Shown here one piece after another: positions 9,558-62,680 of a DNA stretch of 64,000 nucleotides. The notes under the pieces were generated by a model. The model had not been told where the DNA came from. It saw only the letters and a list, made by a program, of their open reading frames with translations, and did no database searches. Made by a program: the position numbers and the translations under genes. Numbering within the stretch: position 1 is the stretch's first letter; the number at the start of each line of letters is the position of its first letter. The stretch is from a virus (taxonomy: Duplodnaviria > Heunggongvirae > Uroviricota > Caudoviricetes): the IMG/VR virus record IMGVR_UViG_3300031760_000013, positions 2,458 through 66,457 of that record; one strand, 5' to 3'.

Positions 9558-9566
9558 CCCACCTCC

Positions 9567-14139: not shown

Positions 14140-14152
14140 ATTGTCACTCCGC

Positions 14153-34047: not shown

Positions 34048-34334
34048 TCATACATCACCGCCATCCCGATCACAAAAGCCTCGAGCATGAGTACAAGTAA
34101 CATGAATGCTCTCAAAAGCCATATTGTAGATCCTGTAATTAAAACCCACACACATAGCGTGGTTGCCAATAAGATAAAAGCTACGTACAGAACAAGGAAA
34201 ATTTTTTCATGCAGTTTGCACTCTTTAAAGAATCCAATAAAATCACTCATCAAAAACCTCTTCAATGTACTCAATTTTTGCATTTTCATATCCGCTTTCA
34301 GCACAAAACGCATTGAAAAGTGACAACATATCAT
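34044..34334 (-). CDS. membrane protein (start probably at an internal Met near 34250)
   Basis: Hydrophobic ORF; overlaps 34243..34458 as drawn. Confidence 0.35.
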   Translation of the reverse strand: MICCHFSMRFVLKADMKMQKLSTLKRFLMSDFIGFFKECKLHEKIFLVLYVAFILLATTLCVWVLITGSTIWLLRAFMLLVLMLEAFVIGMAVMYD

Positions 34335-34458
34335 TTACCATTTCAGTAAACGAAGTCTCTTCAATGTCAAATTGCACATCATCCCAGACAAAATCCTCGG
34401 CTCCACGGCCATCACAGCGGCGAAATTCAATGTTAAATGTGCGTGTTTTTACCATCAT
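34243..34458 (-). CDS. hypothetical protein
   Basis: 71 aa; GGGAGG RBS and ATGATG start; about 190 nt of structured leader upstream. Confidence 0.4.
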   Translation of the reverse strand: MMVKTRTFNIEFRRCDGRGAEDFVWDDVQFDIEETSFTEMVNDMLSLFNAFCAESGYENAKIEYIEEVFDE

Positions 34459-34573
34459 ATACCTCCCTTCTAAGCCTACATCCCAGCGTTTTAATTCTAA
34501 ATGATACCTGCCTTAGATCTGTTCATAATCTCCATCGTCGATGGAGACTTATGAATGCGCGAGAACCCCCGTC

Positions 34574-34599
34574 TTAAATTTCCCGTAAGGGAAATTTAA
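34574..34599. other. perfect 11-bp-stem hairpin ttaaatttccc-gtaa-gggaaatttaa inside the structured leader of 34243..34458
   Basis: Exact inverted repeat read directly; enclosed by a further gagaac/gttctc stem. Confidence 0.5.
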
Positions 34600-34710
34600 A
34601 TTGTTCTCCCTTTTTATCAAACCGTTACTTCCACTTACAGCAAGAAGCAGTTGAATTTATGTAAACCATTTCAACTAATCTACATCATAAGGCAGTGCAA
34701 AAATATTCAT

Positions 34711-34962
34711 TTATTGCATATTTATGAATTTTTTATACTGTTTTTTCGCCTGCTCTTTGTAAAATTCTTCTGCTTTTGCGTTGTCAATTGCAGTTAAAAC
34801 ACCCGCAGCGACCCAAGAAACCACCAGCCACACAATTACGAACTCATAAATTGAAGTCCAACCACTTGCGATTGACTGGAACATGATCGAAAGTGGCAAG
34901 GCTTTGATGAAGATACAGGCATTTTTGTACTTTGGCTTGTATACTTCATCGTTAATGTTCAT
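34711..34962 (-). CDS. small membrane protein (holin-like size and topology)
   Basis: 83 aa with two TM helices and a charged C-terminus. Confidence 0.35.
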   Translation of the reverse strand: MNINDEVYKPKYKNACIFIKALPLSIMFQSIASGWTSIYEFVIVWLVVSWVAAGVLTAIDNAKAEEFYKEQAKKQYKKFINMQ

Positions 34963-35551
34963 TAAACACGACCTGTTCCCCCTTCTTTAAAACCCAGCAA
35001 CCGCTGTCCGTGACTCCACATTCTGTACAATTACCTCCACAAGCATGTGCATCTGCTGATGCTGTTGTAAATCCGTCTTTATATTTCACGTGCGCCTCTG
35101 GAAGGTTATGTGGATTTTGCATAGTAAGTCCTCGCCAAGCGCTAAAGATTATGTGCAAATTGCCAGGGATTTCTACACCAGATTCAATAACCTCATTCAC
35201 ATAGTCGTATCTTTTTGTGAAGCAAAGCATCTCGCAGTGCTTATTCCTCCGCGCAATTTCTATCATCTTGCGGAGGTAATCTTTGCTCGGGATATCGCCC
35301 GAAACATGCCAACGAAAAAATCGAGACACCATAATGGCAGCCTCGACTTCTCTGAAATATGTCTCTGGATCTTTCGTCAGAATCTCCAGATTGTTTTTAT
35401 ATGCATTCCGTACATTCGGTCGCAATCGCTCGATCTTTTTCCCGTAACATTCTTTAGCGCAAGGCACTTTCCCGCATGTCGTTACCGCTGGAAGTGAAAC
35501 GCTTGAGATATTCCCCATCTTAATGTTGCCGCGAGAAATTGATACACTCAT
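34952..35551 (-). CDS. cysteine-cluster protein, function unknown
   Basis: 199 aa; TTCGKVPCAKECYG near the N-terminus and HACGGNCTECGVTDSGC near the C-terminus. Confidence 0.4.
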   Translation of the reverse strand: MSVSISRGNIKMGNISSVSLPAVTTCGKVPCAKECYGKKIERLRPNVRNAYKNNLEILTKDPETYFREVEAAIMVSRFFRWHVSGDIPSKDYLRKMIEIARRNKHCEMLCFTKRYDYVNEVIESGVEIPGNLHIIFSAWRGLTMQNPHNLPEAHVKYKDGFTTASADAHACGGNCTECGVTDSGCWVLKKGEQVVFNEH

Positions 35552-36300
35552 ATAAGCCGCTCAATCCTTTCATAAATGCATTGAAATTGATTAGAACCAT
35601 ACCAATCCCTATGTAAATGGCCATAAACCCATTTTTTAAACTCGGTTTTTGTGGCAATCTCATTGAAGTACAGCGTTTCTATGTCTGGCTCTCTGAAACC
35701 CATACACGAAGCCACTACTTGTGGTGGGCAATGAGTTATAATATAATCTACCTTATTCCCGCATTCGCTAAGTGTTTCCCGCCCACGTTGCATTTCTTCT
35801 TCCGACGGGAGTTCTTCTTTCCACCATGAAACGTGGTTGATACGAAACATTTTCCCTGCGAGAGACCACTGTTTGATAGCGTCATAGAATTCCTTCGCGC
35901 TCCCGAAATCATAGAGGTCAAGAATACCGTCACGAATGTCATGACTCTGTGCCCCTCCGAAACACCAGAATTTCTTTCCGTCAAAATCAAACACATACCC
36001 CCGCATCAAATGAAATACATTAGCTTTAATCTTATGAGCTTTTCCTCCGTGATAATCCACTATAGGAAATTCAGCCAATCTGTCCATATTTTCATGATTA
36101 CCATCAACAAAACAGATTGTGAACTTTTTTCTCGATAACCATTTCAGCCACCATTCTTCTTCGCTACCACCATTCCAAATGCAGCCAAAATCCCCACAAA
36201 CAATTACTGTGTCGTCACGGGTCATCTCTTTTTGCTCTGGAAAATTCTTTGTTGAGAACCGCCTAAAGTCACCATGACAATCGCCAGTTACGTAAACCAA
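35548..36300 (-). CDS. PPP-family Ser/Thr phosphoprotein phosphatase (lambda-phosphatase-like metallophosphoesterase)
   Basis: 250 aa; GDCHGD, GDFG and GNHE motifs in the canonical order. Confidence 0.6.
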   Translation of the reverse strand: MVYVTGDCHGDFRRFSTKNFPEQKEMTRDDTVIVCGDFGCIWNGGSEEEWWLKWLSRKKFTICFVDGNHENMDRLAEFPIVDYHGGKAHKIKANVFHLMRGYVFDFDGKKFWCFGGAQSHDIRDGILDLYDFGSAKEFYDAIKQWSLAGKMFRINHVSWWKEELPSEEEMQRGRETLSECGNKVDYIITHCPPQVVASCMGFREPDIETLYFNEIATKTEFKKWVYGHLHRDWYGSNQFQCIYERIERLI

Positions 36301-36810
36301 TTTGCATCACTCCCTAATTAAAAATCGAAAGCCTTCTGTACAGAGTAGAAGCTAATTTGAAGTTCATTGTTTAAATATAATAGACGGTCAAAAGACCTTA
36401 TGAGTTTAATAATATCAATAAAGAATCACTTTATTTTAGGCTAGCAAGCCGCAGAAATTATTCATTTATTGCCTGTTGTTGACGATTGATGCCTAATGAA
36501 TATTGAATACTGAATATCGTATGACGAATTATGTGTCGTGGCTGTCGAAATGCGTGACGCATCTTCTAGGGTGGAATTTTCAAAATCCCAGAATTTTCAT
36601 TATGTATTCAATGTCAACTTTTGCTATATATCATGGCAAAAAGTAAGCAAATAATTAAGTTTTTGCAATAAATTGCAAACTGATAGTTGACGTACTACCA
36701 AACGTAAACAATAAACAATCTCCTTAATTTCTACTCTGTACAGAGGGCTTTCGCCCTCCGTGTCTGAACAACAACAATGCCTTTATGTAATAGGGTCGTG
36801 TGATACCCTG

Positions 36811-37431
36811 TTACACCTTATTTGCGAATTCCTCGATTACATCTTCGAAGGATTCGTTCACTTCATACGGAGGCGTATAAAAGACCTCCGTGTTTACCAT
36901 AAGCTTGTCAATAGTTTCTGACATCTTATCGGAATCCGCCCTGAGTCTTCTCATTACTGTCTTGTCTGCCTTCCTATCGAACAATTCCTCTTCCGTAATT
37001 TCGATAGTGTAGGTATATCCGGCCTGATTTCCCTCGACATTAAATCTATATCCTGTACCGTATTCATTACGCTTCTTGGGCTTGTTTGTGAGCATATATG
37101 AAATTGCATTACGTGCCCTCTGCCGGAATTTGTTAGCCTCAATTTCTGCGTCTATATCCATGTCAAGAGACTTCTTCGCTTTCCCAATCGCAATGCCCAA
37201 CATCTCTTTCTGATCGATAAGAAACTGGAGAAACTGGATTACCGTATCATTCGGGATGAATTCGTCTACTTCGACTGTTTCTATCATGTCCTCATCGGTC
37301 GAATTTACGACAGACTTTCGATGGTTTTTGATGGTTTTAATTCCATGCTCACGCCTTCCAATGCTCGAGCACGCAGCAGTCATCAAATTGTCGAGATAAT
37401 TCTGGTAACGAAATGACTCTTTCAAATTCAT
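36811..37431 (-). CDS. hypothetical protein
   Basis: 206 aa ORF. Confidence 0.4.
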   Translation of the reverse strand: MNLKESFRYQNYLDNLMTAACSSIGRREHGIKTIKNHRKSVVNSTDEDMIETVEVDEFIPNDTVIQFLQFLIDQKEMLGIAIGKAKKSLDMDIDAEIEANKFRQRARNAISYMLTNKPKKRNEYGTGYRFNVEGNQAGYTYTIEITEEELFDRKADKTVMRRLRADSDKMSETIDKLMVNTEVFYTPPYEVNESFEDVIEEFANKV

Positions 37432-37542
37432 AGGAAATCCTCCAATATAATAATTGTATATATTATCTTATAAGGGGGACACCCCAAGAAGCCCCTTATT
37501 TAGGGCACTCTTGAGACATTTCTGTGCACCCCCCTGCACAAA

Positions 37543-37947
37543 TTAGGCGTGCGATTCGTCTTCGACGATTTCCGTACCACCACACACCCACGAATATGAT
37601 GTATCACCGTCAAGATAAACCGTGATAGAAGCCTGCCTGATCATCAGATTTTCGATTTTGTTCTTAAACCAATTAATGATGCTTTTGTAATCATAGTAAT
37701 CGCGCAGGTCTCCAAAGATAGAAACGGTGTATCTTGCTAGACTATTTTCCTCTGTGGTTTCCCAGACGGACATATTTAGAGAGCCCTCTGTCCCTAATGG
37801 CAGATATTTTTCGGGACATTTTTCCGCGTCTTTCCATGTTTCGATATCCGAGTCAAAGAAAACCTCTTTGCCGAATTCTTTTTCGAAATCCATTTTCCCG
37901 AAGCTATCTACTCTCGCTATTGCAGCAACATGAGTCCAAAAAGACAT
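37543..37947 (-). CDS. hypothetical protein
   Basis: 134 aa ORF. Confidence 0.4.
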   Translation of the reverse strand: MSFWTHVAAIARVDSFGKMDFEKEFGKEVFFDSDIETWKDAEKCPEKYLPLGTEGSLNMSVWETTEENSLARYTVSIFGDLRDYYDYKSIINWFKNKIENLMIRQASITVYLDGDTSYSWVCGGTEIVEDESHA

Positions 37948-37966
37948 GCGTTCTATCTCCTATTTA

Positions 37967-38308
37967 TTATGTAAATTCCTCATCATCTTCAGCTTCTCTA
38001 CTTGGTATGTCCTGGTCACACTCAAAACATGTGAGCTGAATATCACTCAATTTATGGTATTCAATTTCCCCAAATGGTTCGCCCGTGCACTCATCAATCA
38101 GATCAAAACCAAGTAACCATTCTCCATAGCCAAGGTCGATCGCCTCTCTCAGGTATGCGAAGCTGTAATAACTATCCTCAAAAACCGATTCATCAATAGC
38201 TTTAAGCTCCATTTCGTATGGTGTGTATAATTTTCGATACACAAGAAACCGAAAAATTCTGTCGTCCGATTCATCCAGCATAAAAGTTTCCAGATCAGTT
38301 ACTATCAT
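37967..38308 (-). CDS. hypothetical acidic protein
   Basis: 113 aa; preceded by about 300 nt of structured leader carrying the conserved hairpin motif. Confidence 0.4.
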   Translation of the reverse strand: MIVTDLETFMLDESDDRIFRFLVYRKLYTPYEMELKAIDESVFEDSYYSFAYLREAIDLGYGEWLLGFDLIDECTGEPFGEIEYHKLSDIQLTCFECDQDIPSREAEDDEEFT

Positions 38309-38798
38309 TTATATTTCCTTTCATTCCATGTAGTCTATATATGGTATTTGTATGAGCCCGACGACGTCGATCGTTTAGCAGGACATCCTCCGACCGGCTT
38401 GGATGAACTGTTTGGTCAGAGCTTAAGACTCAAGGAAGGCTGTTTTAATTGTGTGATTTGCGTGTGTGGTGGCTAGTGTACTGATAAAATGCCTAACTTT
38501 GAATTTTAATTTGTCTGCCGGTGAGGCTTCCTCGAAACGTTCCAGCGGTATCCGGACGCCCGCGGCGCTCCCGGGACGGCGTCGTGTCCCGCTCAAATCG
38601 TTACTTCCGCTTACAGCAAGAAGCTGTTTCATAAGAAACAAATTGCACTACATGTTTATATTTTTTAGGGGGAAGTTGGCTCATGCACTACCGTCGTAGC
38701 ATTGGAACCAATACCATTACAGCAATATGAGGGAGGGCACATTGCTTTTTCTGGCGACAGCATCTCTGTCATTAAGCATGATTTGATCCTCACTTACG

Positions 38799-38874
38799 TG
38801 GTACCGCTGGATGGAGTTGAACCATCGTCTTTGGCTTATAAGGCCACTGCTTCTAACCATTGAGCTACAGCGGC
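38799..38874 (-). tRNA. tRNA (anticodon loop CUUAUAA, so anticodon UAU, Ile-type), CCA encoded
   Basis: Minus-strand sequence GCCGCUGUAGCUCAAUGGUUAGAAGCAGUGGCCUUAUAAGCCAAAGACGAUGGUUCAACUCCAUCCAGCGGUACCA folds as a cloverleaf: a 7-bp acceptor stem with one G-U, a GG D-loop, T-arm GAUGG/UUCAACU/CCAUC and 3' CCA. The D-stem has one irregularity. Confidence 0.55.
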
Positions 38875-39300
38875 ATATCCTTGCGATCTATACGCCTAAA
38901 AGTCTGAGTTGGCGTATACTATTCTGGCATTTTCGGAGCAAGATAATTTAGATTCACCTGAAAACGTAGAAAATTGAAGATCAAAATCCCTAAGGATTTT
39001 GTCGAAATTTTCGAGGCTTTCAGGTGCAGATGAATTATCTTGTGGAGAAAATGTAGCTACCATTTCAACACTCTCGCTTACAGCAAAGAGCGGCTGTAAT
39101 TATGTATTACCACTTACAACCAATCTGCATCGCAAGGTTACTTGACGTATGTCAAGTATTCCCTTTATTGTAACCGATTAATCGGTCGAGTTCTCTGGCG
39201 ATATCTTCCCGCCTTCTGGACATCATGTCTTTTGGGCTCCTTTTCCTATGCATAAGTCGCCATAAACGAAACGCGTCTTTTAATTCCGCGAATTTCTCAA

Positions 39301-39609
39301 TTACCCACAAAGTAATTCACCCCACAAACTGTTAAATTCATCATCACTGATATCTGGTGGCGGTGAGCACGCTAACTCACTGAACATTTCGTCTGTCCAT
39401 CTGTAATTCCACATATCTACGCTTTCCCCGGAAGATACAAGATATTGGCCATTTAAATAATCAGAGATTTGAACTACTTTTCCTCTAAGCTTGCACATAT
39501 CATCAGTCGCACTATTACTAGCGCTATGGTCTTCCATGCTGTAATGCATACCTTCTATCAAGTCTTCTCTTACAATGACTCTATCGCCTATTTGGTATTT
39601 CATATTCAC
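39301..39609 (-). CDS. small protein, GDRV-barrel/WTDEM family
   Basis: 102 aa; GDRVIVREDL, RWTDEMF and C-terminal DDEFNSLWGEL. Confidence 0.45.
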   Translation of the reverse strand: MNMKYQIGDRVIVREDLIEGMHYSMEDHSASNSATDDMCKLRGKVVQISDYLNGQYLVSSGESVDMWNYRWTDEMFSELACSPPPDISDDEFNSLWGELLCG

Positions 39610-39610
39610 C

Positions 39611-39799
39611 TCATATCCATGCGTCTACTAACGCACCGAGCTGTTTGTTCAGCTCCGCATAATTCCTTCCGTATATTACGGCTTCATCAGAACCCACCTC
39701 ACAAAGTTTATTGTCGAGCCGTACGTTGCGATTGGAAAGAAAATCCTCGAAGACATCAATGATCTGCCCGACAAATTCTTTTCTATCAACTGTGCTCAA
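39611..39799 (-). CDS. hypothetical protein
   Basis: 62 aa ORF. Confidence 0.3.
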   Translation of the reverse strand: MSTVDRKEFVGQIIDVFEDFLSNRNVRLDNKLCEVGSDEAVIYGRNYAELNKQLGALVDAWI

Positions 39800-39812
39800 T
39801 AAATCCTCACTT

Positions 39813-40313
39813 TCATTCCGTCAGAAATTCAAAGAATTCCTCATCTGAGAACACATCTTTAATCTCGGAATCGATAAGCCGGATACTGTCCCATGGTACA
39901 TTCCAACCATGTTTAACATCGCATTCTCCACCGCAAGAATGCCCGTTGATGTTTCTATCCCATCTTACGCCAATCCATTCCCCGCGGTCTTCGCTTTCAA
40001 GATAAACAATTGTTCCGCGGTCTCCGGCCCGTAAGTGTCCACCATCTAATTTAATTAAGCCAGAATACTCTACTCTGTCCCCAACTCTGAAGTCGTCGCA
40101 TATTCCCCTAAGTGAGTCTGGATGGAGGTACCAGCCGTGCTCGTCGTTACACCGGCCATCACATGTATGCCCTCGATGTATCGCCATGTCGAATTCGACT
40201 CCGATTGAGCCGCCACCAAAGGATACACTTACGACTGTTCCTCGATATCCCATTTGGATATCGCCAATTTTTACATCGCTGATGTATTCTACACGATCCC
40301 CAAGATCAAACAT
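39813..40313 (-). CDS. tandem-duplicated GDRV/HGW-domain protein with C-terminal SDEEFFEFL tail
   Basis: 166 aa. Two internal repeats, each GDRVEY...G.RGT.V...GV.....GH.C.G.C...HGW..P.DS. Confidence 0.45.
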   Translation of the reverse strand: MFDLGDRVEYISDVKIGDIQMGYRGTVVSVSFGGGSIGVEFDMAIHRGHTCDGRCNDEHGWYLHPDSLRGICDDFRVGDRVEYSGLIKLDGGHLRAGDRGTIVYLESEDRGEWIGVRWDRNINGHSCGGECDVKHGWNVPWDSIRLIDSEIKDVFSDEEFFEFLTE

Positions 40314-40321
40314 AATTTACC

Positions 40322-40639
40322 TCACAAACCTAAGAACAAGGTAAACTCATCGTCAGAGCATGCATCAAATTCTTCGGATTCCTGCAGTTTTTCCACGTTA
40401 TATTTGTTCGTATTCCAACCATGGCCTACTTCGCATGCCCCATCATTGGAATGCCCGTTCGGCAGTGCCTCATCCCATGCAATGTAAACCCATGTAATAT
40501 CTTCTGGGCAATCTTGCAAAACCGTCCCGGTCATACCGTACTTTAAATGACCGTTATCTTCGGCACGTTCGCTTACAAATATTATCCGGTCGCCCTTACG
40601 TAAAACTTGGCGTTCTCTATCATATTTACACATCTTCAT
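40322..40639 (-). CDS. GDRV/HGW-domain protein with C-terminal DDEFTLFLGL tail
   Basis: 105 aa; KGDRIIFV...GHSNDGACEVGHGWN; single copy of the repeat found in 39813..40313. Confidence 0.45.
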   Translation of the reverse strand: MKMCKYDRERQVLRKGDRIIFVSERAEDNGHLKYGMTGTVLQDCPEDITWVYIAWDEALPNGHSNDGACEVGHGWNTNKYNVEKLQESEEFDACSDDEFTLFLGL

Positions 40640-40741
40640 AAACCTCCATGCTGTTGGCCGTTACAGATTGGAATTGTTCTGGAGTCAATTCGTATGGGTA
40701 TTTCTCTGAAAGTAAAAACACCATTTAATATTCCCATCCTT

Positions 40742-40966
40742 TCACAAACAGAACTGTGGATTACACCCTTCACCCTGATGTGGGCAACTCTTACAGGTAG
40801 AACCTTGGGTTATATCATTTACCTGTGAAGCAAAACCTTCTCTCAATTCTTCTTCTATGTTTTCCCGGTTCTCGTCAGTTCTTAAATCAACCACTGTGAT
40901 ACCAAGCATTTTCCAAATCTCTTCAAAAGTCCCTTCAACATAGACACCCTTAATTTTTGCTTTCAT
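40742..40966 (-). CDS. small protein with C-terminal Cys cluster
   Basis: 74 aa; CKSCPHQGEGCNPQFC; 9 nt downstream of the RT gene. Confidence 0.35.
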   Translation of the reverse strand: MKAKIKGVYVEGTFEEIWKMLGITVVDLRTDENRENIEEELREGFASQVNDITQGSTCKSCPHQGEGCNPQFCL

Positions 40967-40974
40967 ATTAACCC

Positions 40975-42129
40975 CTATCCAGCAAGATCCTCTTTAATCA
41001 GTTTCTTGATGCTCCCGCAACCAAGCTTCTCACCAAGATAACCAACCAGCTCGTCAATTTTTCTGCCTTCAACCATCTTGTAATAATTATAGAGCCCGTT
41101 CATAACTTGGATATCCTCCAAATCCCACGGATTCCCGTTCTGCCTATCTTTCACATAGTTTGTGAGCATCGCCTGAAATCTGCGCTTAGTTTTATGCCCA
41201 ATAGTTATTTCGTTCTGCCCGTTAAGACAGCATCCAAGCAGAAAGTTATGTCCAGAAGAAGAACCGTACCTTGTCTTTGCGGTATTGAGCTGGAACGGCG
41301 CATTAAATGTTGCAAGTGAGCTGATAATTTCCTGCTCGATTTTTCTGAAGTCGAAATCATACCGAGACGAAATGATAAAGTCATCGGCATATCTCGTATA
41401 CACGAAGCGCTGCTTATCGAAATCCCTGAGTTCCTTCGATAGCTTATAGTCGATTGGAATCATCATGATGTTGGTTATCAGCGGAGAGATCGGAGTGCCC
41501 TGCGGAAGCCCGCCATTCAGAATTGCTAACTCAAGAGCAGATTCCAAAGCACTTCTTCCTCTTTCGGTCTTAACCACTTCAGAAAACGGGTATACCATAG
41601 AGAACATCTGCATGATAAATTCCAGAGTTGTGCTACCAAAGAAGTCATGCAGGTCATATTTACAAAACCACTTGCTCTCATTTGACTGATGACGCTTCAC
41701 CGCATCAAGCGTAGACCGTTTCTTGATATACGCAAAAGCCGATGTGTGATACAGCGCCTTACAATCATTCTCAAAAATACCTTTCAGTGTTCTAAGTGCG
41801 CTCATCAAGTCGTCTTCCGGCGCATTAATCTCACGAAGGCCGCCAGATTTTTTAGGAATATAAAACTTATAGTATGATTCCTGCCTTGGCTTAGATTTAA
41901 TTCTAGCCACTACATCTGATGTGTTAAAAGCTTCGAGCTTGAGGATGATGCGTCCAATGCTTATACCAAGTTTTCTTTCTACCCTATCAGACACATACTC
42001 CATTTCATAAGTACGTGTGTTTGTAAGATTCTCATTGATTACGCCTGGCGTAGTCGATGTCTGGAAGAGAAACTCCTCCAAAGTCATCTGGTGATACGTC
42101 GGCGGCATCTTGACAACGACATATACCAT
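40975..42129 (-). CDS. reverse transcriptase (retron-type, no maturase/endonuclease domains)
   Basis: 384 aa. RT motifs YIPKKSGGLREI (motifs 1-2), LPQGTPISPLITNIMM (motif 4, QGxxxSP) and YTRYADDFII (motif 5, YADD). GGGAGG RBS. Confidence 0.85.
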   Translation of the reverse strand: MVYVVVKMPPTYHQMTLEEFLFQTSTTPGVINENLTNTRTYEMEYVSDRVERKLGISIGRIILKLEAFNTSDVVARIKSKPRQESYYKFYIPKKSGGLREINAPEDDLMSALRTLKGIFENDCKALYHTSAFAYIKKRSTLDAVKRHQSNESKWFCKYDLHDFFGSTTLEFIMQMFSMVYPFSEVVKTERGRSALESALELAILNGGLPQGTPISPLITNIMMIPIDYKLSKELRDFDKQRFVYTRYADDFIISSRYDFDFRKIEQEIISSLATFNAPFQLNTAKTRYGSSSGHNFLLGCCLNGQNEITIGHKTKRRFQAMLTNYVKDRQNGNPWDLEDIQVMNGLYNYYKMVEGRKIDELVGYLGEKLGCGSIKKLIKEDLAG

Positions 42130-42157
42130 CTTATGTTCCTCCCTATTAAACTGTTAT

Positions 42158-42480
42158 ATAACTGTAATCTACGTGTGTGTGCCTGCAGGAACCGGGACCG
42201 TCTTCCTGGATCTGGAGTTGTAGTCTGCTGGCGAGCTCGCCATTACTGAGTAGCTTGTCATCGAGAAAGGAGCCTTGTTTTCCAAGATTTCGTATTTCTG
42301 ATGGCTAAGATTTTGCTACTAGGTCTTGATAAGACTCGATGACTGTGACAGCACGAGCAGCTGCTGGGTCATCGCTGCGGCGGAAGGCGTGCCCAGCCAT
42401 CGTTCACGCCTCTGCTCAAATCGTTACTTCCGCTTACAGCAAGAAGCACCATATTACTATGGTCATTGCATTACAGTTAT
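42158..42480 (-). ncRNA. candidate retron msr/msd-like non-coding RNA upstream of the RT
   Basis: A 323-nt non-coding region bounded by 11-bp inverted repeats ataactgtaat (42158-42168) and attacagttat (42470-42480). The downstream repeat lies 28 nt from the RT start, the a1/a2 geometry expected of a retron. The interior has a perfect palindrome tggcgagctcgcca and GC-rich pseudoknot-like stems. Confidence 0.35.
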
Positions 42481-42497: not shown

Positions 42498-42752
42498 TTA
42501 TTCGTTTTCCAAAATCTCAAGCAGATGTTTCCCGTGATCGGTGATTTTCATATGCTTGAGCATAGATTCGCAGTGCTCGCTCTTGAAGAATTCTTTGATT
42601 TCCTTTTTGGAATAACCCCATTCATCGCGAGTTATCCGCGAATCCTTTCCCCTATTGCAAAGGTCGCGGTAATCGTCAGCTGCCTTCTGCAAAATTGCCA
42701 TGGCAAGCTGAGCTGCACCGCGACCCCGCAACACCTCTAACGATTCTGGCAT
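42498..42752 (-). CDS. hypothetical protein
   Basis: 84 aa; between the E1-like gene and the RT leader. Confidence 0.35.
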   Translation of the reverse strand: MPESLEVLRGRGAAQLAMAILQKAADDYRDLCNRGKDSRITRDEWGYSKKEIKEFFKSEHCESMLKHMKITDHGKHLLEILENE

Positions 42753-43423
42753 CAGAATACGTCCAGAATCCCACTAAAGCCATCGATCTGGCCGAACTTC
42801 CAAATACCTTCACCCTTAACAAACTTTATGTAATTGTTCACACACATCGCACAGATGAGGCGGACAGTTGTCACAACTCCGAGTGTAATTCCGCACGCGC
42901 TCACTGGAGTCTCGTTTTTTGCCTCTTCGTGTGAAAACTGCATAGAGTTCAGAAGGTTCTGGCGTGACTGGTAATCACTCCAGTCTGCCCCATACATCTG
43001 CGCTCCCGTTAGAGCCGTTCTCACGTCGAACACCGCTTTTAAGAAAGGGTGATCCATGTGCTGCTCAACAAATTTCCTGCGCAGTTCTATATTGTCCGGG
43101 CAAAGGAACACATACCCCGATAGCATTTTCCCCTGCCACCCTTCCGGTTTGATCTTGATCGAATCTTTTGCTTCCGGATTAATTTCCAGAATAAGATCCC
43201 GCAGCGCCTCGACCTTAAGCCTTCCGATATCCTGCTGTCTGAACATCTGGTTCACGATGTTGTGCTTTTCGACCTTGTCGAAATCATAAAGCGTCATCTT
43301 TGTAATGCCGCACCGAGCAAGATTTTCCGCGATTGTCGAGCCGACTGACCCGCAGCCGATTATATGAATCATCGCGTCATCTTTTTCCGGCTGGAAGAAT
43401 TCATAGCTTTTACTGAGATCCAT
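42752..43423 (-). CDS. ThiF/MoeB-family E1-like adenylyltransferase (minimal adenylation domain)
   Basis: 223 aa. HIIGCGSVGSTIAENLARCGITKMTLYDFDKVEKHNIVNQMF reproduces the E1 Rossmann GxGxxG plus the D.D.VE..N(L)xRQ nucleotide-binding signature. Confidence 0.6.
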   Translation of the reverse strand: MDLSKSYEFFQPEKDDAMIHIIGCGSVGSTIAENLARCGITKMTLYDFDKVEKHNIVNQMFRQQDIGRLKVEALRDLILEINPEAKDSIKIKPEGWQGKMLSGYVFLCPDNIELRRKFVEQHMDHPFLKAVFDVRTALTGAQMYGADWSDYQSRQNLLNSMQFSHEEAKNETPVSACGITLGVVTTVRLICAMCVNNYIKFVKGEGIWKFGQIDGFSGILDVF

Positions 43424-43424
43424 A

Positions 43425-43916
43425 TTACCCTCCGATCATTTCATTTGCTTCACGCAAACCATTACCAAGAGCTTCGAGCTCTTCCTCCGTAAACCTCTGC
43501 ACACAATCCCTGCTTTCGGAAAGCATATCCATCACCGTGCATTCTTCTTCCTCGACCTCGAAAGGATCGTACGGTTCAAATGGCTCTTCCTCTTCGTCAT
43601 CTTCCCAGGCGTCGTTTTCATCCGCCCAATCACGAACTTCGCCTTTCCAGTAATCAAAATCCGCCGGACGCCATTCGCCATAATATTCGTCATACTCATA
43701 GTAATCATAACCACTATTGTCACGATACCTATCAAGTATATTGAACAAATCTTGCCACGTGTTATCTCTGGCAAGATCGACAAGACTTTCATCGATAATT
43801 TCGTCACGCGAATCTGCAGAGATTACATCCTCAAGAAGATAGCAGCCGACATCGTCGCAGAACTGATTCAGGTCATAGAAATCATTAACGTCATCGATAA
43901 ATGTAGAACGATTCAT
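43425..43916 (-). CDS. highly acidic protein ending in Gly-Gly (candidate ubiquitin-like/sulfur-carrier-like partner of the E1-like enzyme)
   Basis: 163 aa with very Asp/Glu/Tyr-rich repeats (DYYEYDEYYGEW, EDDEEEEPFEPYDPFEVEEEE). C-terminus ...NEMIGG followed by the stop codon. AGGAGG RBS. Beta-grasp fold not verifiable by eye. Confidence 0.4.
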   Translation of the reverse strand: MNRSTFIDDVNDFYDLNQFCDDVGCYLLEDVISADSRDEIIDESLVDLARDNTWQDLFNILDRYRDNSGYDYYEYDEYYGEWRPADFDYWKGEVRDWADENDAWEDDEEEEPFEPYDPFEVEEEECTVMDMLSESRDCVQRFTEEELEALGNGLREANEMIGG

Positions 43917-43928
43917 ATTTTCCTCCTA

Positions 43929-44933
43929 TCAATAATAGAACCCGTCACTATACCCGAACGGGCCATACGGGTCGTCCATTTCATCGGCATAGATACCGGA
44001 TGCCCTGTATGGCGATCTGTCGGATTTTTTCTTCTCTTTTTTCTCGGAACGTTTGAATTTCTTCCCGAGATGTTTTTTCTTTGACTCGGGGTACTCCTTC
44101 TTTTCCTGCTTGTCCACTTGTGCCACCTGTACCTGCTTAGGTTGTTCAACCTTTGCGATCGGGGCCACAGGCGCAGGTTTTACCTGTTCTGGTTTCTGGG
44201 TATAATTATTTCTATATACGGACTGCAATTGTTCTTGATTTAAGTTGTACGCAGACCCGTTGTAATTCCCGTACTGCTGGTATGCCGGTTTATTTTCCGT
44301 GATCATTCCCTTTGCTTCACGCAAGAACTTTTCAACTCCGCATTCATCTTCGATCACGTTAACCGTCACGTCGGAAGTATCAAACATGACATTCTTTTTC
44401 ATGTCATAGATCTTATACATACATTCCCCGCGCTTGTTATAGATCATGAATATGTAAAACATCGTATCATCGAGTTGGCCGAGAAGCTTTTCATACAAAT
44501 CATTATCAGTTACCGATGGCGTAACTCCCATATTTACATGGGAATGCCCCTGCATTCTGATATTGTTGAATACCTCATCTTCCTGCTTCATCAACCATTC
44601 CTGGTACTTAATCTGATCTGTGTTGACATTCGCCGCGGAAACTACCTGCGGGTATACCAGAATGTCTGTGATATAATACTCGTCTTTCGTCTCATCTTCG
44701 CCACGATAAGCAAGCCCATGCCAACCAACTTCTTTATCACATTCCCTGATCAATGACGTCATTTTCAGCCATGCAATTTCGGTGAAATAAACCGTACATG
44801 GACGTTTTGTCGCCATCAATGCTCGATGAAAATCGATCTTGCCATCCATCAGCTTTGCAGATTTCAGGATACTTTCAAATTCCTGTCTCCACTGGCTGAT
44901 ATTATCCTCTGTTATCTTAATTGCTTTCGCCAT
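43929..44933 (-). CDS. JAMM/MPN+ family metalloprotease (JAB deubiquitinase-like) with Lys-rich C-terminal tail
   Basis: 334 aa. Exact JAMM motif HSHVNMGVTPSVTD (HxHx7Sx2D) with an upstream Glu (EVGWHG). C-terminal third is low-complexity and Lys/Pro-rich. Confidence 0.65.
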   Translation of the reverse strand: MAKAIKITEDNISQWRQEFESILKSAKLMDGKIDFHRALMATKRPCTVYFTEIAWLKMTSLIRECDKEVGWHGLAYRGEDETKDEYYITDILVYPQVVSAANVNTDQIKYQEWLMKQEDEVFNNIRMQGHSHVNMGVTPSVTDNDLYEKLLGQLDDTMFYIFMIYNKRGECMYKIYDMKKNVMFDTSDVTVNVIEDECGVEKFLREAKGMITENKPAYQQYGNYNGSAYNLNQEQLQSVYRNNYTQKPEQVKPAPVAPIAKVEQPKQVQVAQVDKQEKKEYPESKKKHLGKKFKRSEKKEKKKSDRSPYRASGIYADEMDDPYGPFGYSDGFYY

Positions 44934-46404
44934 TTGCAGTTGCCTCCCCTTCCTGCAGTTTCAGATATTCGATTGCTTCCTTCGGTTTTACTACGCTGCC
45001 ATCCGGCAGTTCAAAGCATTTATTGTTCGTGCTGTAATCGCTTATGCCATAAATCCTCTTGAAGAATTCACGCATAACGGTACCGTCCCCAAAGTTCAAA
45101 CTCTTGCATGATGCGATGCACTGTTCAATCGCGCCGATATAATCCCTATTTCTAAGGAACATATTAATCTGACGTTCGTAATTCCCGAGACAACGATATG
45201 CGTCAATGTGAGTATTCGGCATATAATCTCGGAATTCCGAGCCATACTCATACCCACCCATCGCACTGACATTACCTTCAAGACGGAAATGATATGCTGC
45301 ACAGAATCTGATCTTTATTGTCTGATCAATAAACACTGCACGCATCAGCTTTTCCATGTCTTCTTCCGGAATAATGTTGTTACACCCACGATCGTTCGGG
45401 CGATACATGAGACTGCGCTTATTCCCGATCATGCTCTCAGCAGCATCTTCGTCGAAATACTGGAGATAATCTTTCACAACGAATTCCATCACTGTATCAT
45501 CTACCTTCATTAGTGACAGTTTCCTATTGTTGATAAAGTACTGCATGATCTCAGATTCTTCATCGCCGCTTGCAAGCTTTGTTTCAATCCCCAGAAGAAC
45601 GGTTTCCTGGTCTCTTCTCTTACGCAGATATTCCCCAATTTCTTCGTTCAATCTTTCGATCGTCCTATCGATCTCACCGATATTATTAGCGACTTCCGTC
45701 CTGCGGAGACGCTCATATTTCAACTCAAACCCTCCAAGCATTCCCTTAATGCCTGCGGTTCTGAAATCGTAATGAGATGCGATCTGATCAACACACTCGA
45801 GATATCTGTCCGGCGTTTTCTCTCTGAGAGAATGAATCAGCGACATTTCCTCATCGGATACACCATTTTTCGGATCAAAATACCAAGGTAAGAACGCAAA
45901 TACACCACACTGCAGATAATGCATTCTGCGTGTGTCCATATTATCCGTGAAGATGTAAACGCTGCGTCGCTCAACATTCACATAACACAGAACTTTGAAA
46001 ACTTTCCGGTAAAAATCCGTGACCTTTGTTACGCGATGCCATCCCGCACACATGCTCTCGAGGTTGTTTTCGATCGCGTGGAATACCTTTTCCGACGCTT
46101 CGTCTGAACCAGTCGAGATGTTCTTAATAAACAGGATACCATCACCCATGCGATTAACATGAACACACTGATCGTTCGCAATAGTTTCCTCTGTCTTTGA
46201 CCGAACATCGCTTGGACGCATTGACTGTGAATAATACGAAAAAGTGAGGTTGTCATCCTCTCCCATTCTTGGCGCAACTAATGCACGCAATGTAGATATG
46301 AACGTGCTATCACCATTCACCATATCGCCCCAGATTTTCCCTCTGAAATACTCTTCCGCGAACGGTGTGGTCAGAGACGTTCCACGAATTAAGTCTCTAA
46401 ACAC
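44917..46404 (-). CDS. hypothetical protein (495 aa)
   Basis: Long ORF with no motif I can name. Confidence 0.45.
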   Translation of the reverse strand: MFRDLIRGTSLTTPFAEEYFRGKIWGDMVNGDSTFISTLRALVAPRMGEDDNLTFSYYSQSMRPSDVRSKTEETIANDQCVHVNRMGDGILFIKNISTGSDEASEKVFHAIENNLESMCAGWHRVTKVTDFYRKVFKVLCYVNVERRSVYIFTDNMDTRRMHYLQCGVFAFLPWYFDPKNGVSDEEMSLIHSLREKTPDRYLECVDQIASHYDFRTAGIKGMLGGFELKYERLRRTEVANNIGEIDRTIERLNEEIGEYLRKRRDQETVLLGIETKLASGDEESEIMQYFINNRKLSLMKVDDTVMEFVVKDYLQYFDEDAAESMIGNKRSLMYRPNDRGCNNIIPEEDMEKLMRAVFIDQTIKIRFCAAYHFRLEGNVSAMGGYEYGSEFRDYMPNTHIDAYRCLGNYERQINMFLRNRDYIGAIEQCIASCKSLNFGDGTVMREFFKRIYGISDYSTNNKCFELPDGSVVKPKEAIEYLKLQEGEATANGESN

Positions 46405-49942: not shown

Positions 49943-50200
49943 ATGATATTGTTATTTAAAGACCAGACTTATTTAGCAATCACATCAACCAAGTGGATTA
50001 ATAAAGAAGAGGCTGACATAATCAGCCTCAACGATTTACAGAAATCCAAAGAATTCCACGGGAAATCAGTGGAGTCTGCCGGTATTTGTTTTTACGATTC
50101 CAGTTATTATCTCGTTGTGGAATTTACAAAAACCCTCGAGATTCATAAATGGTGCGGTAATTGCATCGTGAAAACCATTTGGAGAATTATTCCAGATTGA
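49943..50200 (+). CDS. hypothetical protein
   Basis: 85 aa plus-strand ORF with AAGGAG RBS; isolated plus-strand gene in a minus-strand block. Confidence 0.35.
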   Translation: MILLFKDQTYLAITSTKWINKEEADIISLNDLQKSKEFHGKSVESAGICFYDSSYYLVVEFTKTLEIHKWCGNCIVKTIWRIIPD

Positions 50201-51137
50201 AATAGCGTTTATAGGCGCGGTAAGACCACAAGGCTTTACCCGCCGTTTTTGTTCCTTTAAAAACCTCAGTAACTTTACTGGCGTTTTCTTTTGAAAATAC
50301 ATCGAATCCCGCCTGTTCTAATAAGAACAGAGCGTGGAGCCTACCAGATTCCCACACGTTTTTAAAGACAAGCCTATTAGGATTCCCAAGCTCCTGATAG
50401 GCTTCAGCGATTTTGTTTAATGCTGAATTCAATTGCGTTGGTGTATAAGATTCCCCGAACCTGTCGGATTTTGGTGTTGCGAACTTCTTCAAAAACTGTT
50501 TGCAATTCGGGTCTTTTACCACGTTAAAAACCGCCGTCCGATTTTCTCTTTGAGCGATTTTGCAATCTGCATACTCCGTAAGGATTTTAGAAATTTCCGG
50601 AGAATACCATGATGCTATAACATTCCCGTCAACATCATATATTTTCTTGTTAGCAAGATCAACTTGAGAATCCAGCATATTAAATATACTGTTTTTCCCA
50701 ACACCAATCCACGCAAGCGCAAATATCGGTGGCTCTACATACCCGTTATCAATTTCCCGAACCTTTTTAATTTCTGTACACAGTGACGCCGGGTCTTTAA
50801 TGTAGATTTCCCCTGCTTTCGAGAATACATCTGAATTCGGATCAATTGCCGCGAGAATCCAATCTGTCACGTGATCAAAAACCCTATTTCTATCACACCA
50901 TTTCAGATATGAATTCACTATTGAACGGACCGTGTATATGGTTCCCAGAGATTGCATATCTAATTTCCCAGCAACAGATTCCGCTTCCGCTTTATCCATT
51001 TCCGCAATATCCTTACCAAAATCCCGTTCAAGCTCTTCTGTAATTCCAAAGATTTTGAACGCAGTATTCCTGTTGGATTTGGTTGCAATCATTTCCATGA
51101 TAAAGCTATCTTTAATTTCGGCATTATACATTTCCAA
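50187..51137 (-). CDS. hypothetical protein, paralog of 23419..24372
   Basis: 316 aa; shared length and motifs with 23419..24372. Confidence 0.45.
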   Translation of the reverse strand: MEMYNAEIKDSFIMEMIATKSNRNTAFKIFGITEELERDFGKDIAEMDKAEAESVAGKLDMQSLGTIYTVRSIVNSYLKWCDRNRVFDHVTDWILAAIDPNSDVFSKAGEIYIKDPASLCTEIKKVREIDNGYVEPPIFALAWIGVGKNSIFNMLDSQVDLANKKIYDVDGNVIASWYSPEISKILTEYADCKIAQRENRTAVFNVVKDPNCKQFLKKFATPKSDRFGESYTPTQLNSALNKIAEAYQELGNPNRLVFKNVWESGRLHALFLLEQAGFDVFSKENASKVTEVFKGTKTAGKALWSYRAYKRYFNLE

Positions 51138-53188: not shown

Positions 53189-55082
53189 TGTAGTATCCTC
53201 CCAAATTTAATATGTGGGTGCAGTACACCCCTACATATCTTACATCACTGCAGGACATGTAGCGACATACTGTCCTGGATACTCTGATTTATAGCGCTGT
53301 CTCCCCCATTACGCCCGTGCTATTCTCTCACGACCGCTGTACCGCTGTGCTCTCTATTGTGCTCCATAACGTTATTCATACTTACCATCCACCGGCAGTC
53401 TATCAGGGCAGATTGACACATGAGTCAAGAGCATGTTTTGTGGATATAGTATCCCCCTGGTTTACTGTTGTCTACTCACATAAGAACATTGTTTCACTAT
53501 TGCTGATGACAGCTCATTACTCCAATTGCAATTATGCTTTTGTCATGTCACGTATGCGCTATGGTTCGGCTATGCACTGTCACTACATTTTTCAATAGTA
53601 ACTACAGCTGTTACCCTACGCTTTTTCGGATATAGACTTTTCAAAGTGCTCCAATAGTGTTTTGGATATTTCACTATTGTCCATAGATATAGTACACCCA
53701 TTGCGTTTAGCGTTACTCTACCAGAGAGCTTGTGCGATACTACCAGAGTATCCTATCACGCTATGGTTTAAACTATATCGGTTTTTCAAGCTGCTGCACT
53801 CTTTCAAGTACATCTACAGTATAGCACATTTTGATTGACTTGTCAAGAGTTTTTTTAAGTTTTTACTTTTGCACTCTAAACAAAAGAATGTAGAATTGTT
53901 TTCACAAGCTAATGTGTTATCTTTCCGCATGTTGTCTTTTGCTTTTTGTGCGTTTGCCTATAGTATCCCCATATTTGCCGAAGCAATTTTTTTTGCTATC
54001 TCAATCCACCGTCCACGCGTATGATTATACTATTGGCATAAGTATAAACTTTTCAATGTGCTTTAGCTGTTTTGTGCTCTCTTTCGATTGCATATACACT
54101 ATAACACATTTTCTTGAGTTTGTCAATAGTGAATTTTGATGATTCACTATTTTTTTCTGCTATCTGTATTCACTTTTCAAAGTGCTACCAAAACGAACCG
54201 AAAGATTTTTGCGGCTGGCTTGTTTTGATGGTGCTATGATAGCACATCAAGTCGTATTTGTCAACAGTTTTTTTCAATTTTTTTGATCACATTTGTTATC
54301 TTTATTCTCACGTCTGTTAACTATTATCTCTCTCACATCTGTTAACTTTTTCTTTCGTCTGTTAACTTTTGCTTTCGATTGTGCATTATGTGATTTTGCA
54401 CAATGGGAAATGGGCGGTGGTTTTGGTTTTCTAATAGTGCCAGGACCGGAAGAGCCAGGTAGTTGCTTTTTCTCCCACACCAACCAAATCTCAAAACTCA
54501 ATCTCACACCACCCAAAATCACCAATCACTCCGCGCAACCAACATTATGCCATAATTTCGCCCATTTAGCAACAGAGGTTAAGCCAAAATATTTTCCAAA
54601 AACAGAAGGGTTGTCTCAACCGCTATCCTGTTTTATTCCTCAACCATGGGTGCATAACCTTTAAATACACTCCCCTTTCGGTATTGGAAAAATTTTCTTT
54701 CTATAGGGATTGACTTTGCCTTTGCCTATTTGGTATACTCAGATCAACCTAAATAAATTACTTGCAGACAGAGGGTTTGACCGCCTCTGTCTCTTGTGTT
54801 ATTGGAGAGAAAACCGGTACATCAAAGTTGCCAAAAAAGTTCCGAATTTTGAAGTGTCATTTTCCATTTTGTACACGGTCTGTGTACAAAACCATTCTGA
54901 CTACCCCAGTAATTACTGGGTTTCTGAGGCTAGCCTTAAAAGAATAAGGAGGGAAGAAAAAGTGAAACCATCAAAAAAGTTCTGAATTCAAAGATTCTTC
55001 ATGGTAGTGTTTACTCAACAGCATAGTAGACCCCGTGAAATCTGTGTACAAAAATTAATAAACGGAGGTTGATAACCGAAAG
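53189..55082. promoter_or_regulatory. about 1.9 kb AT-rich non-coding strand-switch region with iterons and direct repeats (candidate origin and divergent regulatory region)
   Basis: No long ORF with RBS. Genes diverge from here (minus strand to the left, plus strand to the right). Contains three roughly 30-nt direct repeats (53821-53850, 54090-54130, 54238-54268) and three copies of tctgttaact. Confidence 0.55.
54305..54372. repeat. three direct iteron-like repeats C(A/G)TCTGTTAACT(A/T)TT
   Basis: tctgttaact at 54313-54322, 54338-54347 and 54358-54367, with 25 and 20 nt spacing. Confidence 0.6.
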
Positions 55083-61642: not shown

Positions 61643-62680
61643 TTGTGCATAATGGGACGAAAGACAAAAATGACTAGAATCACTAGTCCAGAAAAGATGG
61701 CTTTGATAAACAAAAACAATATCAGGCTCAAAGATGAATTTTTGATGTATCTGAAATCCATCCAACGAAGCCCTGGCACGATCACCGGATACGATAGTGA
61801 CCTGACAATTCTGTTTACATACATACTGGATAATTATGACAACAAAGATTTCCAGCAGCTAAGCAAACGAGACCTGATCGGATTTCAAAACTGGATGGTA
61901 ACGAATGGAAATTCAAGCTCACGAATCAGGAGAGTAAAAGCTGCTATCAGCTCCTTGTCGAATTACTGCGAGAACATATTGGCTGACGACGACCCTGATT
62001 TCGACGGGTTCAGATCTATCGTGAGAAAGATTGAGAACCCTCCTCTTCAGCCGGTCAGAGAAAAGACTGTGCTCGAAGATGATGAGCTTGGGCTTTTGCT
62101 TGACAAGCTTATAGAAAAGAAGCAATACAAGAAAGCTTGTTGCCTTGCACTTGCTATGTATAGCGGTAGACGGAAAGCGGAGCTTCCACGATTTCGCGTT
62201 GAGGATTTTAGCGATGAGCGGCTTGTATGCGATGGTGCACTATATAAAAGCTCACCGATTCAAACCAAAGGGAGGGCAGGTGGAAAGTACCTCGCTTGCT
62301 ATACTCTGGCAAAGAAGTTTAGCCCCTATCTTGATTTATGGATGAAAGACCGAGAAGAGCAAGGGATAGAGAGTGAATGGCTCTTCCCTTCTGCAACTGA
62401 TACTAGCAAACCGATGGGTATATCAACGCTGAATAGTTGGGCAAAGACTTTCTCTGCTATCCTGCAGAATGATTTCTATTGGCATGCCATGAGGCACTAC
62501 TACACAACGTGCCTGACCAGAGCAGGTATCCCAGACGGTGTGATTCAAAGTATTGTTGGTTGGGATTCTGCAGACATGGTCAAGGTCTATAAAGATATTG
62601 ATGCTGATGAAGAGATAGGAATGTATTTTAAAGATGGTGATATCTCCGTTCCGGATAGGAAAGGATTCGGAGATATATAG
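61643..62680 (+). CDS. tyrosine recombinase (phage integrase family)
   Basis: 345 aa. N-terminal core-binding-type domain; C-terminal WHAMRHYYTT (HxxR) and IVGWDSADMVKVY (catalytic Tyr). Confidence 0.7.
   Translation: MCIMGRKTKMTRITSPEKMALINKNNIRLKDEFLMYLKSIQRSPGTITGYDSDLTILFTYILDNYDNKDFQQLSKRDLIGFQNWMVTNGNSSSRIRRVKAAISSLSNYCENILADDDPDFDGFRSIVRKIENPPLQPVREKTVLEDDELGLLLDKLIEKKQYKKACCLALAMYSGRRKAELPRFRVEDFSDERLVCDGALYKSSPIQTKGRAGGKYLACYTLAKKFSPYLDLWMKDREEQGIESEWLFPSATDTSKPMGISTLNSWAKTFSAILQNDFYWHAMRHYYTTCLTRAGIPDGVIQSIVGWDSADMVKVYKDIDADEEIGMYFKDGDISVPDRKGFGDI

Follow-up and report, generated by a model that had tools for sequence, protein, structure and literature searches.

Retron noncoding RNAs (ncRNAs) are defined by complementary ends, a1 and a2, a conserved branching G that acts as primer, an msr with one to three short hairpins and an msd that forms a long, variable hairpin, and region Y of the retron reverse transcriptase (RT) steers the enzyme to its cognate msr (PMC7736814). 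Stand-alone retron cassettes are known in some RT clades (PMC7736814), and in engineered multitrons a single retron RT reads arrayed msr-msd units (PMC10370050). Otherwise, work on retrons has dealt with bacterial anti-phage systems that have a single template, and with their use in genome editing. Here we describe a 64,000-nucleotide (nt) stretch of a Caudoviricetes virus (IMG/VR record IMGVR_UViG_3300031760_000013, positions 2,458 to 66,457; hereafter the window), in which a 22-nt hairpin, hp2, occurs four times on the minus strand, at 34627-34648, 38603-38624, 39070-39091 and 42426-42447 (in units that we call A, B, D and C, respectively). The same strand encodes a retron-type RT of 384 amino acids (aa) at 40975-42129 (Pfam RVT_1, 1.7e-18). 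From the arrangement of the sequence around the hairpin, we consider that hp2 is probably the conserved msr stem-loop of four paralogous retron-type template ncRNAs, copied by one phage RT.

The locus resembles Retron-Eco1/Ec86 (in the classification of Mestre et al. 2020, PMC7736814) in its a1/a2 duplex, the G after a1 and the short msr hairpins, as well as in having a structured, fast-evolving msd, an ncRNA directly 5′ of the RT gene on the same strand and an RT-specific msr element. It differs from Eco1 in that there are four templates per RT, three of which (units A, B and D) lie 3-8 kb away from the RT gene, and in that it is located in a large-phage backbone, not in a bacterial defence island or a prophage moron. 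Moreover, there is no recognised effector, the RT has degenerate motifs and carries an N-terminal extension of ∼70 aa, and the hairpin and its tail have no Rfam match. The locus is like the multitrons (PMC10370050) in that several units with the same msr and different msd accompany one RT, and in the related phages L113-L116 the units are even in tandem; however, multitrons are synthetic and based on Eco1, whereas the units described here occur naturally, either dispersed or in tandem, and are kept throughout a phage clade. We found no description of natural multi-ncRNA or phage-backbone retrons in the literature searched, although this search was limited and does not prove their absence.

The repeated hairpin and its enclosing units

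The core 12-mer of the hairpin, TTGCTGTAAGCG, is found on the minus strand without mismatch at 38608-38619 (unit B), 39075-39086 (unit D) and 42431-42442 (unit C), and with one mismatch (TTGCTGTAAGTG) at 34632-34643 (unit A). These four minus-strand matches at ≤1 mismatch compare with 0.29 expected, and four were reached in none of 100 shuffles; a search of the window at 3 mismatches yielded no credible further copy. The four places are those named in an earlier reading of this DNA from its letters alone (the original prediction), which had also proposed a scan with a covariance model. A model trained on 11 copies and run with filters off returns just these four copies in the window, with scores of 55.5, 54.7, 51.0 and 46.2 bits. 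A weak match to the model on the plus strand (4573-4623, 16.7 bits, E 0.017) is antisense to the NrdD gene and probably spurious. Related phages were found by a pattern scan of IMG/VR, a search with the RT protein and a contig look-up for one RT cluster. Over the window plus 18 loci of such phages, the model has 37 matches at E<0.01, all 37 of them on the strand of the RT gene.

The pairing of the hairpin is supported by covariation. The stem is GCUUC/GAAGU in units A, B and C and GCUCU/AGAGU in unit D, that is, two pairs are changed on both sides. This compensatory change, singled out in the original prediction, is borne out by the alignment of the 37 sequences, in which 99.1% of cells are paired and both sides have changed at six of the nine pairs (30 cells), including all three inner pairs together. 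When the partner is shifted by 1-3 columns as a control, 35-57% are paired. The alignment was fitted to the model, which biases it toward structure, but the RT-proximal copies, chosen by position instead of by pairing, likewise fit the hp2 structure. G-U or U-G occurs at three of the pairs in 31, 27 and 8 of 36 sequences, and since G-U pairs occur on one strand only, we agree with the original prediction that hp2 is transcribed from the minus strand.

The hairpin differs from its first description in two respects. First, the supposed 12-nt loop pairs internally: the fold comprises 6 bp, a 1-nt bulge (U), 3 bp (GCU/AGC) and a GUA triloop, and the inner 3-bp helix covaries in relatives (UA to GC or CG, CG to UA and GC to GU), with L107 having GCG-UUU-CGC as inner helix and triloop. 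Second, the loop and the sequence that follows the hairpin had been reported as the same in units A, B and C, but unit A deviates in both. Its loop is UUGCUGUAAGUG (a variant ending in AAGUG, which results in a G-U pair in the inner helix), one change from units B and C, and its tail is AACGGUUUGAUA, with three changes in the box after the hairpin. A tail 3′ of hp2 is conserved (AACGAUUUGA; consensus AACNAYUUGA), and the tail sequences form two classes, with unit D unlike A, B and C.

All four hp2 copies sit within units of 188-328 nt that are closed by the inverted repeat a1/a2; hp2 starts 20-37 nt into the unit and a2 lies another 172-312 nt downstream. As read from the sequence, each unit runs in the order a1, G and ∼5 unpaired nt, a variable hairpin (hp1), hp2, tail, a variable structured interior (the putative msd), (U/C)AG and a2. 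A G directly after a1 and AG directly before a2 are present in all four window units, and the G also stands after a1 in the units of relatives. In the minimum free energy (MFE) fold of each window unit, a1/a2 is closed and both hp1 and hp2 form; the z-scores relative to shuffles are −2.4 for unit C, −2.1 for B, −6.95 for D and −6.11 for A. Hp1 forms at ≤ −2 kcal/mol in 26 of 27 units and beats 95% of shuffles in 20 of the 27, with a sequence that is unrelated among units.

Unit C (42158-42480; this and all following unit coordinates are on the minus strand) lies directly 5′ of the RT gene and is delimited by a1/a2, the MFE fold and the conserved ends. Its arms, a1 (ATAACTGTAAT, 42480-42470) and a2 (ATTACAGTTAT, 42168-42158), form a perfect 11-bp repeat with 301 nt between them. 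The putative branching G follows a1 at 42469, hp1 (ACCAUA-GUAA-UAUGGU) occupies 42448-42463, and hp2, identified both by pattern match and by the covariance model, is followed by the conserved tail (AACGAUUUGAGC, 42414-42425). UAG precedes a2, which ends 28 nt ahead of the RT ATG, with the ribosome binding site (RBS) and the ATG of the RT gene after it; at its other end the unit begins 17 nt past the stop codon of the upstream open reading frame (ORF). The 5′ and 3′ modules of unit C are kept in the related phages L107 and L111, but the interior has diverged. Unit C thus has all the sequence-level features of a retron ncRNA. The same features recur in units A, B and D, which stand apart from the RT gene. 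The original prediction had recognised that one copy of the hairpin abuts a retron-like ncRNA, but overlooked that all four appear to belong to the same kind of ncRNA.

Unit B (38327-38654), whose MFE fold closes a1/a2, lies 5′ of a 113-aa ORF (37967-38308). It is bounded by the inverted repeat of a1 (CATGTAGT, 38654-38647) and a2 (ACTACATG, 38334-38327), with the G at 38646, hp1 at 38626-38639 and the tail at 38591-38602. Unit A, the shortest (34508-34695), lies ∼50 nt 5′ of a 71-aa ORF (34243-34458). Its a1 (CTGCCTTATGAT, that is CTGCCTTA(T)GAT, 34695-34684) pairs with a2 (ATCTAAGGCAG, 34518-34508) over 11 bp with one bulge; the G is at 34683, the tail at 34615-34626, and CAG precedes a2. 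The msd of unit A (34529-34599) contains two perfect palindromes, an 11-bp stem at 34574-34599 and a 9-bp stem at 34529-34547. These palindromes, and the GC-rich stems after the hairpin in units B and C, had been reported in the original prediction and are present. The H-type pseudoknot proposed for unit B fares less well, since its stem GACGCC/GGCGUC loses a pair in L111 without compensation, in what is the one informative comparison.

Unit D (38876-39140) ends 1 nt before a gene for tRNA-Ile with anticodon UAU (38799-38874, minus strand). Its a1 (TAACCTTGCGAT, 39140-39129) and a2 (ATCGCAAGGATA, 38887-38876) match over 12 nt at 92%, the G is at 39128, hp1 at 39092-39121 and the tail at 39056-39069, and the long msd stem-loop (38928-39053) is a 48-nt imperfect inverted repeat. 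The a2 arm is 1 nt from the first base of the tRNA, and the orthologous unit of L107 (∼14110) likewise stands directly before a tRNA. Since unit D abuts the tRNA, cleavage by RNase P would set the 3′ end of the ncRNA right after a2. A mechanically called 55-aa ORF (38896-39063, minus strand) within the msd stem is probably not a gene, because its differences from L111 are compensatory stem changes.

Units A, B and C each serve as the leader of an ORF whose RBS comes just past a2. This position also agrees with an explanation that does without the RT, in which the units are structured mRNA leaders that act in RNase III processing, stability or translation control and the hairpin is bound by another phage or host protein, the copy beside the RT gene being simply another of these leaders; indeed, the a1/a2 duplex is a plausible RNase III substrate. 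We consider this explanation unlikely. A leader has no evident use for the G after a1 and the AG before a2 that most units keep, whereas priming from a 2′-OH requires them, and unit D precedes a tRNA and no ORF. Two observations in related phages, described below, also bear on this explanation.

In the original prediction, transcripts begin with the hairpin, which might serve in antitermination or processing or as a promoter-proximal element for the RNA polymerase encoded by the phage, here one of the YonO type. The copies are intergenic and in gene orientation, within leftward transcription that extends across the whole left 54 kb of the window, and the conserved loop with its linear box is loosely boxB/boxA-like. 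The likeness is to lambda nut (boxA + boxB) and HK022 put, in which a small conserved-loop hairpin beside a linear box is repeated at the heads of gene blocks. Moreover, the phage does encode a YonO-like polymerase, and the YonO promoter was still undefined in 2017 (PMC5467207); the literature searched gave no description of one. However, nut and put are promoter-proximal and act on RNA polymerase, whereas hp2 lies inside an a1/a2-closed unit beside an RT, and we identified no N-like or Q-like partner and no downstream terminators. The conserved a1, 20-37 nt upstream of the hairpin, must be on the same RNA to pair with a2, and the AT-rich boxes TAATAT, TTATGA and TAAATT, taken for transcript-start signals, are the loop or the 3′ arm of hp1 (TAATAT is part of hp1 of unit C). 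Unit C begins only 17 nt past an ORF stop, and there are no sigma-70-like promoters at the sites: a scan for sigma-70 promoters and terminators gave counts no higher than in shuffles, with no consistent placement at the hp2 copies. A shared −35/−10 upstream, sought by eye, could not be defined, the common 'GTAATGCAAT' being the end of a1 plus G. Finally, SPbeta YonO drives a late operon (PMC5467207), but the units belong to the replication/early arm on the minus strand. A YonO promoter was therefore dropped as an idea, and a 5′-end signal of any of these kinds is in our view very improbable. Being internal to the closed unit, hp2 also does not fit a hairpin that stabilises the mRNA from its 5′ end.

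The terminal duplex and its evolution in related phages

An 8-bp repeat that ends at a G is found at 3.7% of random sites and is thus not significant by itself. Among 22 distinct units from the window and related phages, however, 15 have an a1/a2 of at least 9 Watson-Crick bp ending at G, compared to 7% of random sites (binomial 5e-13), and AG stands ahead of a2 in most of the 22 units, compared to 5% in the null. The sequence of the arms differs among paralogues while their complementarity is kept, and orthologous units show compensatory changes: unit B has CATGTAGT/ACTACATG in the window and CATGTAAT/ATTACATG in L107, and unit D has CCTTGCGAT/ATCGCAAGG in the window and CCTTGCAAT/ATTGCAAGG in L107. 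Arms that are non-identical among copies and yet complementary rule out a transposase-type terminal repeat and indicate an RNA duplex.

This result bears on the possibility that the units are repeats at the level of DNA, either miniature inverted-repeat transposable elements, recombination sites or the template repeats of a diversity-generating retroelement. Inverted repeats do flank the units and an RT is present, but terminal repeats that differ among copies and remain complementary are the opposite of what a transposase site requires, and the G-U pairs of hp2 occur on one strand only. With respect to a diversity-generating retroelement, no variable-repeat-like second copy of any unit interior is present elsewhere in the window, and the RT fits retron models far better than those of other classes (see below). 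We regard a DNA-level repeat as extremely improbable.

The IMG/VR scan, made with TTGCTGTAAGCGNNAGT, gave 102 matches, approximately the number expected by chance, of which only L013, L083 and L045 are true relatives; L088, probably a chance match within a coding region, was rejected. A megablast search of the region against GenBank phages gave no match. In the related phages, 2-4 units are found within 10 kb of the RT gene, all on the RT strand, and in L113-L116 they form ncRNA-RT-ncRNA-ncRNA arrays with units back to back. A unit directly 5′ of the RT gene is also present in L107, L112, L103, L105, L113-L119 and L134; L104 is an exception in which no unit adjoins the RT gene. In L134, whose RT is 38% identical to that of the window, the same architecture contains a wholly different hairpin (GCACUC-A-GGU-UAA-ACC-GAGUGU). 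The usual presence of one unit directly 5′ of the RT, down to 38% RT identity and with the exception of L104, is the first of the observations that argue against RT-independent leaders.

The second is the manner in which the units diverge. L111 has ∼94% DNA identity to the window region, and between the two the 5′ module (a1, G, both hairpins and tail) and (U/C)AG with a2 are essentially unchanged. Of the differences, all 23 found in unit C and 56 of the 57 found in unit B lie in the interior. The interiors are 83-95% identical to those of L111, with unit B at 83% and the surrounding region at 93-95%. In comparison with L107, whose RT is 72% identical, the end modules still align but the interiors are unalignable. 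As judged from these alignments, invariant priming and recognition ends around a hypervariable structured template are the known retron pattern (PMC7736814).

If only unit C works as a template, then units A, B and D might be decoys that bind the RT, regulators of its availability or decaying duplicates. Such a division would agree with a1/a2 being weakest in B and A and with the two tail classes that set D apart from A, B and C. However, orthologous B and D units keep both a1/a2 and the msd stems by compensatory changes. In unit D, five consecutive msd stem pairs are changed on both sides relative to L111 and all are still paired, and compensatory msd pairs number three in unit B and one in unit C. 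This upkeep of a1/a2 and msd stems implies selection on the whole unit and not on an RT-binding module alone. Since engineered arrays also show that one RT can copy several units (PMC10370050), we find a template role for unit C alone quite unlikely.

The hairpins of one phage are more alike than those of different phages, with a mean identity of 0.885 within genomes compared to 0.721 between genomes, a difference reached in none of 2000 permutations, while the interiors of the paralogous units in the window are unrelated to each other. Similar hairpins with unrelated interiors fit a single genome-specific reader, the RT, for all units; gene conversion could also contribute to the likeness of hairpins within genomes. 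The RT clade itself comprises more than 120 clusters at ≥61% identity; no source gives any of them a functional name, and two bear the label 'hypothetical protein'. Several of these clusters are on contigs of 100-120 kb and a few are on longer ones.

The reverse transcriptase and a proposed mechanism

The RT is most similar to retron RTs in each of three comparisons. Its top matches among PADLOC models are all retron RTs (RT_II-A, 6.5e-46), and its best NCBIfam match is retron St85 (9e-49), compared to 2.9e-26 for group II, 3.7e-11 for Drt2 and 1.8e-08 for Drt3. Similarly, nine of the ten top sequence matches in PDB are retron RTs, and the remaining chain is titled just 'RNA-directed DNA polymerase'. 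The DRT2/DRT9-type defence RTs also have a structured ncRNA template encoded immediately upstream of the RT, but here the Drt2 and Drt3 models match weakly and a1/a2 with an adjacent G is the priming geometry of retrons. In one relative, L132 (RT 64% identical), the RT gene is directly followed by a gene whose product has a Cauli_VI (hybrid-binding) and an RNase H domain (11481-12113), and one more ncRNA unit separates the two genes; no homologue of this RNase H gene was found in the window or in the RT loci of the other relatives.

By analogy with retron biology, the a1/a2 duplex would put the G beside the 3′ end of the template, and the RT would dock on hp2 and the tail, prime from the 2′-OH of the G, copy the interior into a small single-stranded DNA and stop near the tail. 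With a common docking module and different interiors, one RT might thus produce four multicopy single-stranded DNAs (msDNAs) of roughly 100, 165, 245 and 255 nt. On this proposal, the idea of the original prediction that hp2 is a functional structure at the RNA level stands, given the covariation, and hp2 is probably also the binding site of a phage protein, but the RT encoded next to it is a likelier partner than the HU-like proteins or RtcB that had been put forward.

Several results weigh against four retron templates copied by one RT. The match to the NCBIfam retron St85 model, at 166 bits, is below the cutoff of 235, and the RT is thus not a member of a named retron family. When the RT is aligned with the Ec83 RT, LDNAKIH corresponds to LDAVKRH and HVTG to FLLG, such that the NAxxH and VTG motifs retain only H and G (AVKRH, LLG); these two are the most conserved residues of region X NAxxH and region Y VTG in retron RTs (PMC7736814). 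Unit B has an a1/a2 of only 8 bp and unit A a bulged one, neither being significant singly, and the folds of B and C are just modestly better than those of shuffled sequences (z −2.1 and −2.4). L134 shows a single unit in the 15 kb of its sequence that is available. In Rfam, at the gathering score and at E≤10, the tRNA alone was matched, with no family for hp2 or the units. Lastly, no effector gene was recognised among ten neighbouring ORFs (PHROGs and Pfam, with PADLOC applied to the RT only). Of these ten ORFs, seven have no PHROG match and four no Pfam match, and the rest of the matches are weak or uninformative, those of note being SH3-like repeats and a ThiF/E1-like protein. We nevertheless consider retron templates to be the probable identity of all four units.

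There are hints that the msDNAs might act in the programme of the phage itself, as decoys or by affecting gene expression, and not in toxin-antitoxin defence of the classical kind. This role is suggested by the placement of units A, B and C as ORF leaders and of D against a tRNA, and by the lack of a recognised effector. Integrase-like genes are present at 50187-51137 (minus strand) and 61643-62680 (plus strand), and the retron units may instead have a prophage-encoded defence role.

Phage setting and implications

The phage encodes a single-chain RNA polymerase of the YonO type (56691-59291, plus strand; Pfam RdRP domain) that shares 38-40% identity with proteins from Clostridium phage c-st and Enterocloster phages, a likeness that places it among large Firmicutes phages. 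At the switch from minus- to plus-strand gene orientation there are three direct repeats of ∼24 nt (TTxTTCTCACGTCTGTTAAC..., 54302-54370), which are candidate operator or origin repeats in a divergent control region.

Upstream of unit C (42752-46404, minus strand) are the gene for the ThiF/E1-like protein (223 aa) and, preceding it, ORFs of 334 and 495 aa. All three have homologues just 5′ of the RT gene in L132, where their order is kept and identities are 49-73%. The E1-like protein also has a weak match to the 'cap2_3' model for 6A-MBL, an anti-phage system. Downstream of the RT gene are paralogous small genes with Xrn1-SH3-like domains (39813-40313 and 40322-40639, minus strand); in L134, diverged repeats with a period of ∼300 nt downstream of the RT gene (9400-15200) look like a similar series of paralogous genes.

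Unit D, the tRNA, a spacer RNA and unit B together form a stretch of ∼810 nt, in which the listed minus-strand ORFs are the doubtful 55-aa one in unit D and a 72-aa one with a TTG start in unit B. The spacer, ∼130 nt from tRNA-Ile to unit B (38670-38798, minus strand), is 91% identical to its L107 equivalent despite the unalignable msd interiors on either side and an RT identity of just 72%. It has a multi-branch fold closed by CAUGC/GCAUG and followed by G-CCA (z −2.85), has no Rfam or ARAGORN match, and among the relatives is present in L111 and L107 only; from this fold it may be a small RNA, tRNA-like or of another kind. A 28-nt repeat (minus strand TCATAAATATGCAATAAATGAATATTTT; 34700-34727 and 36455-36482, 82% identical) occurs directly 5′ of a1 of unit A and again in the intergenic gap at 36.3-36.8 kb; the two copies could represent a common promoter or operator. 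Near the second copy is a long palindrome (36613-36691).

The component parts of the locus are those of known retrons. What is new, as far as our literature search tells, is the natural organisation of one RT with many templates, the location in the backbone of a widespread clade of phages and the defined recognition module of a hairpin plus tail. We tentatively propose, as a possibility that falls somewhat short of an even chance, that an unnamed, widespread clade of ∼100-kb Firmicutes (Clostridia-type) phages, recovered in metagenomes of human faeces and other sources, harbours natural arrays of retrons. In such arrays, one RT would serve three or four templates that are built into the gene programme of the phage, as ORF leaders and one tRNA fusion, and would supply several msDNAs for the phage's own use in gene regulation, priming or anti-defence decoys.

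The analysis removes a false lead, the hairpin as a promoter or antitermination element, and the proposal would raise the question of what a phage does with msDNAs. The hairpin with its tail would be a compact RT-recognition module with natural specificity variants, useful for orthogonal retron editors. If the proposal is true, multiplexed retron arrays evolved in nature, as a natural counterpart of the engineered multitrons, and retrons could no longer be viewed as just bacterial defence modules with one template each.

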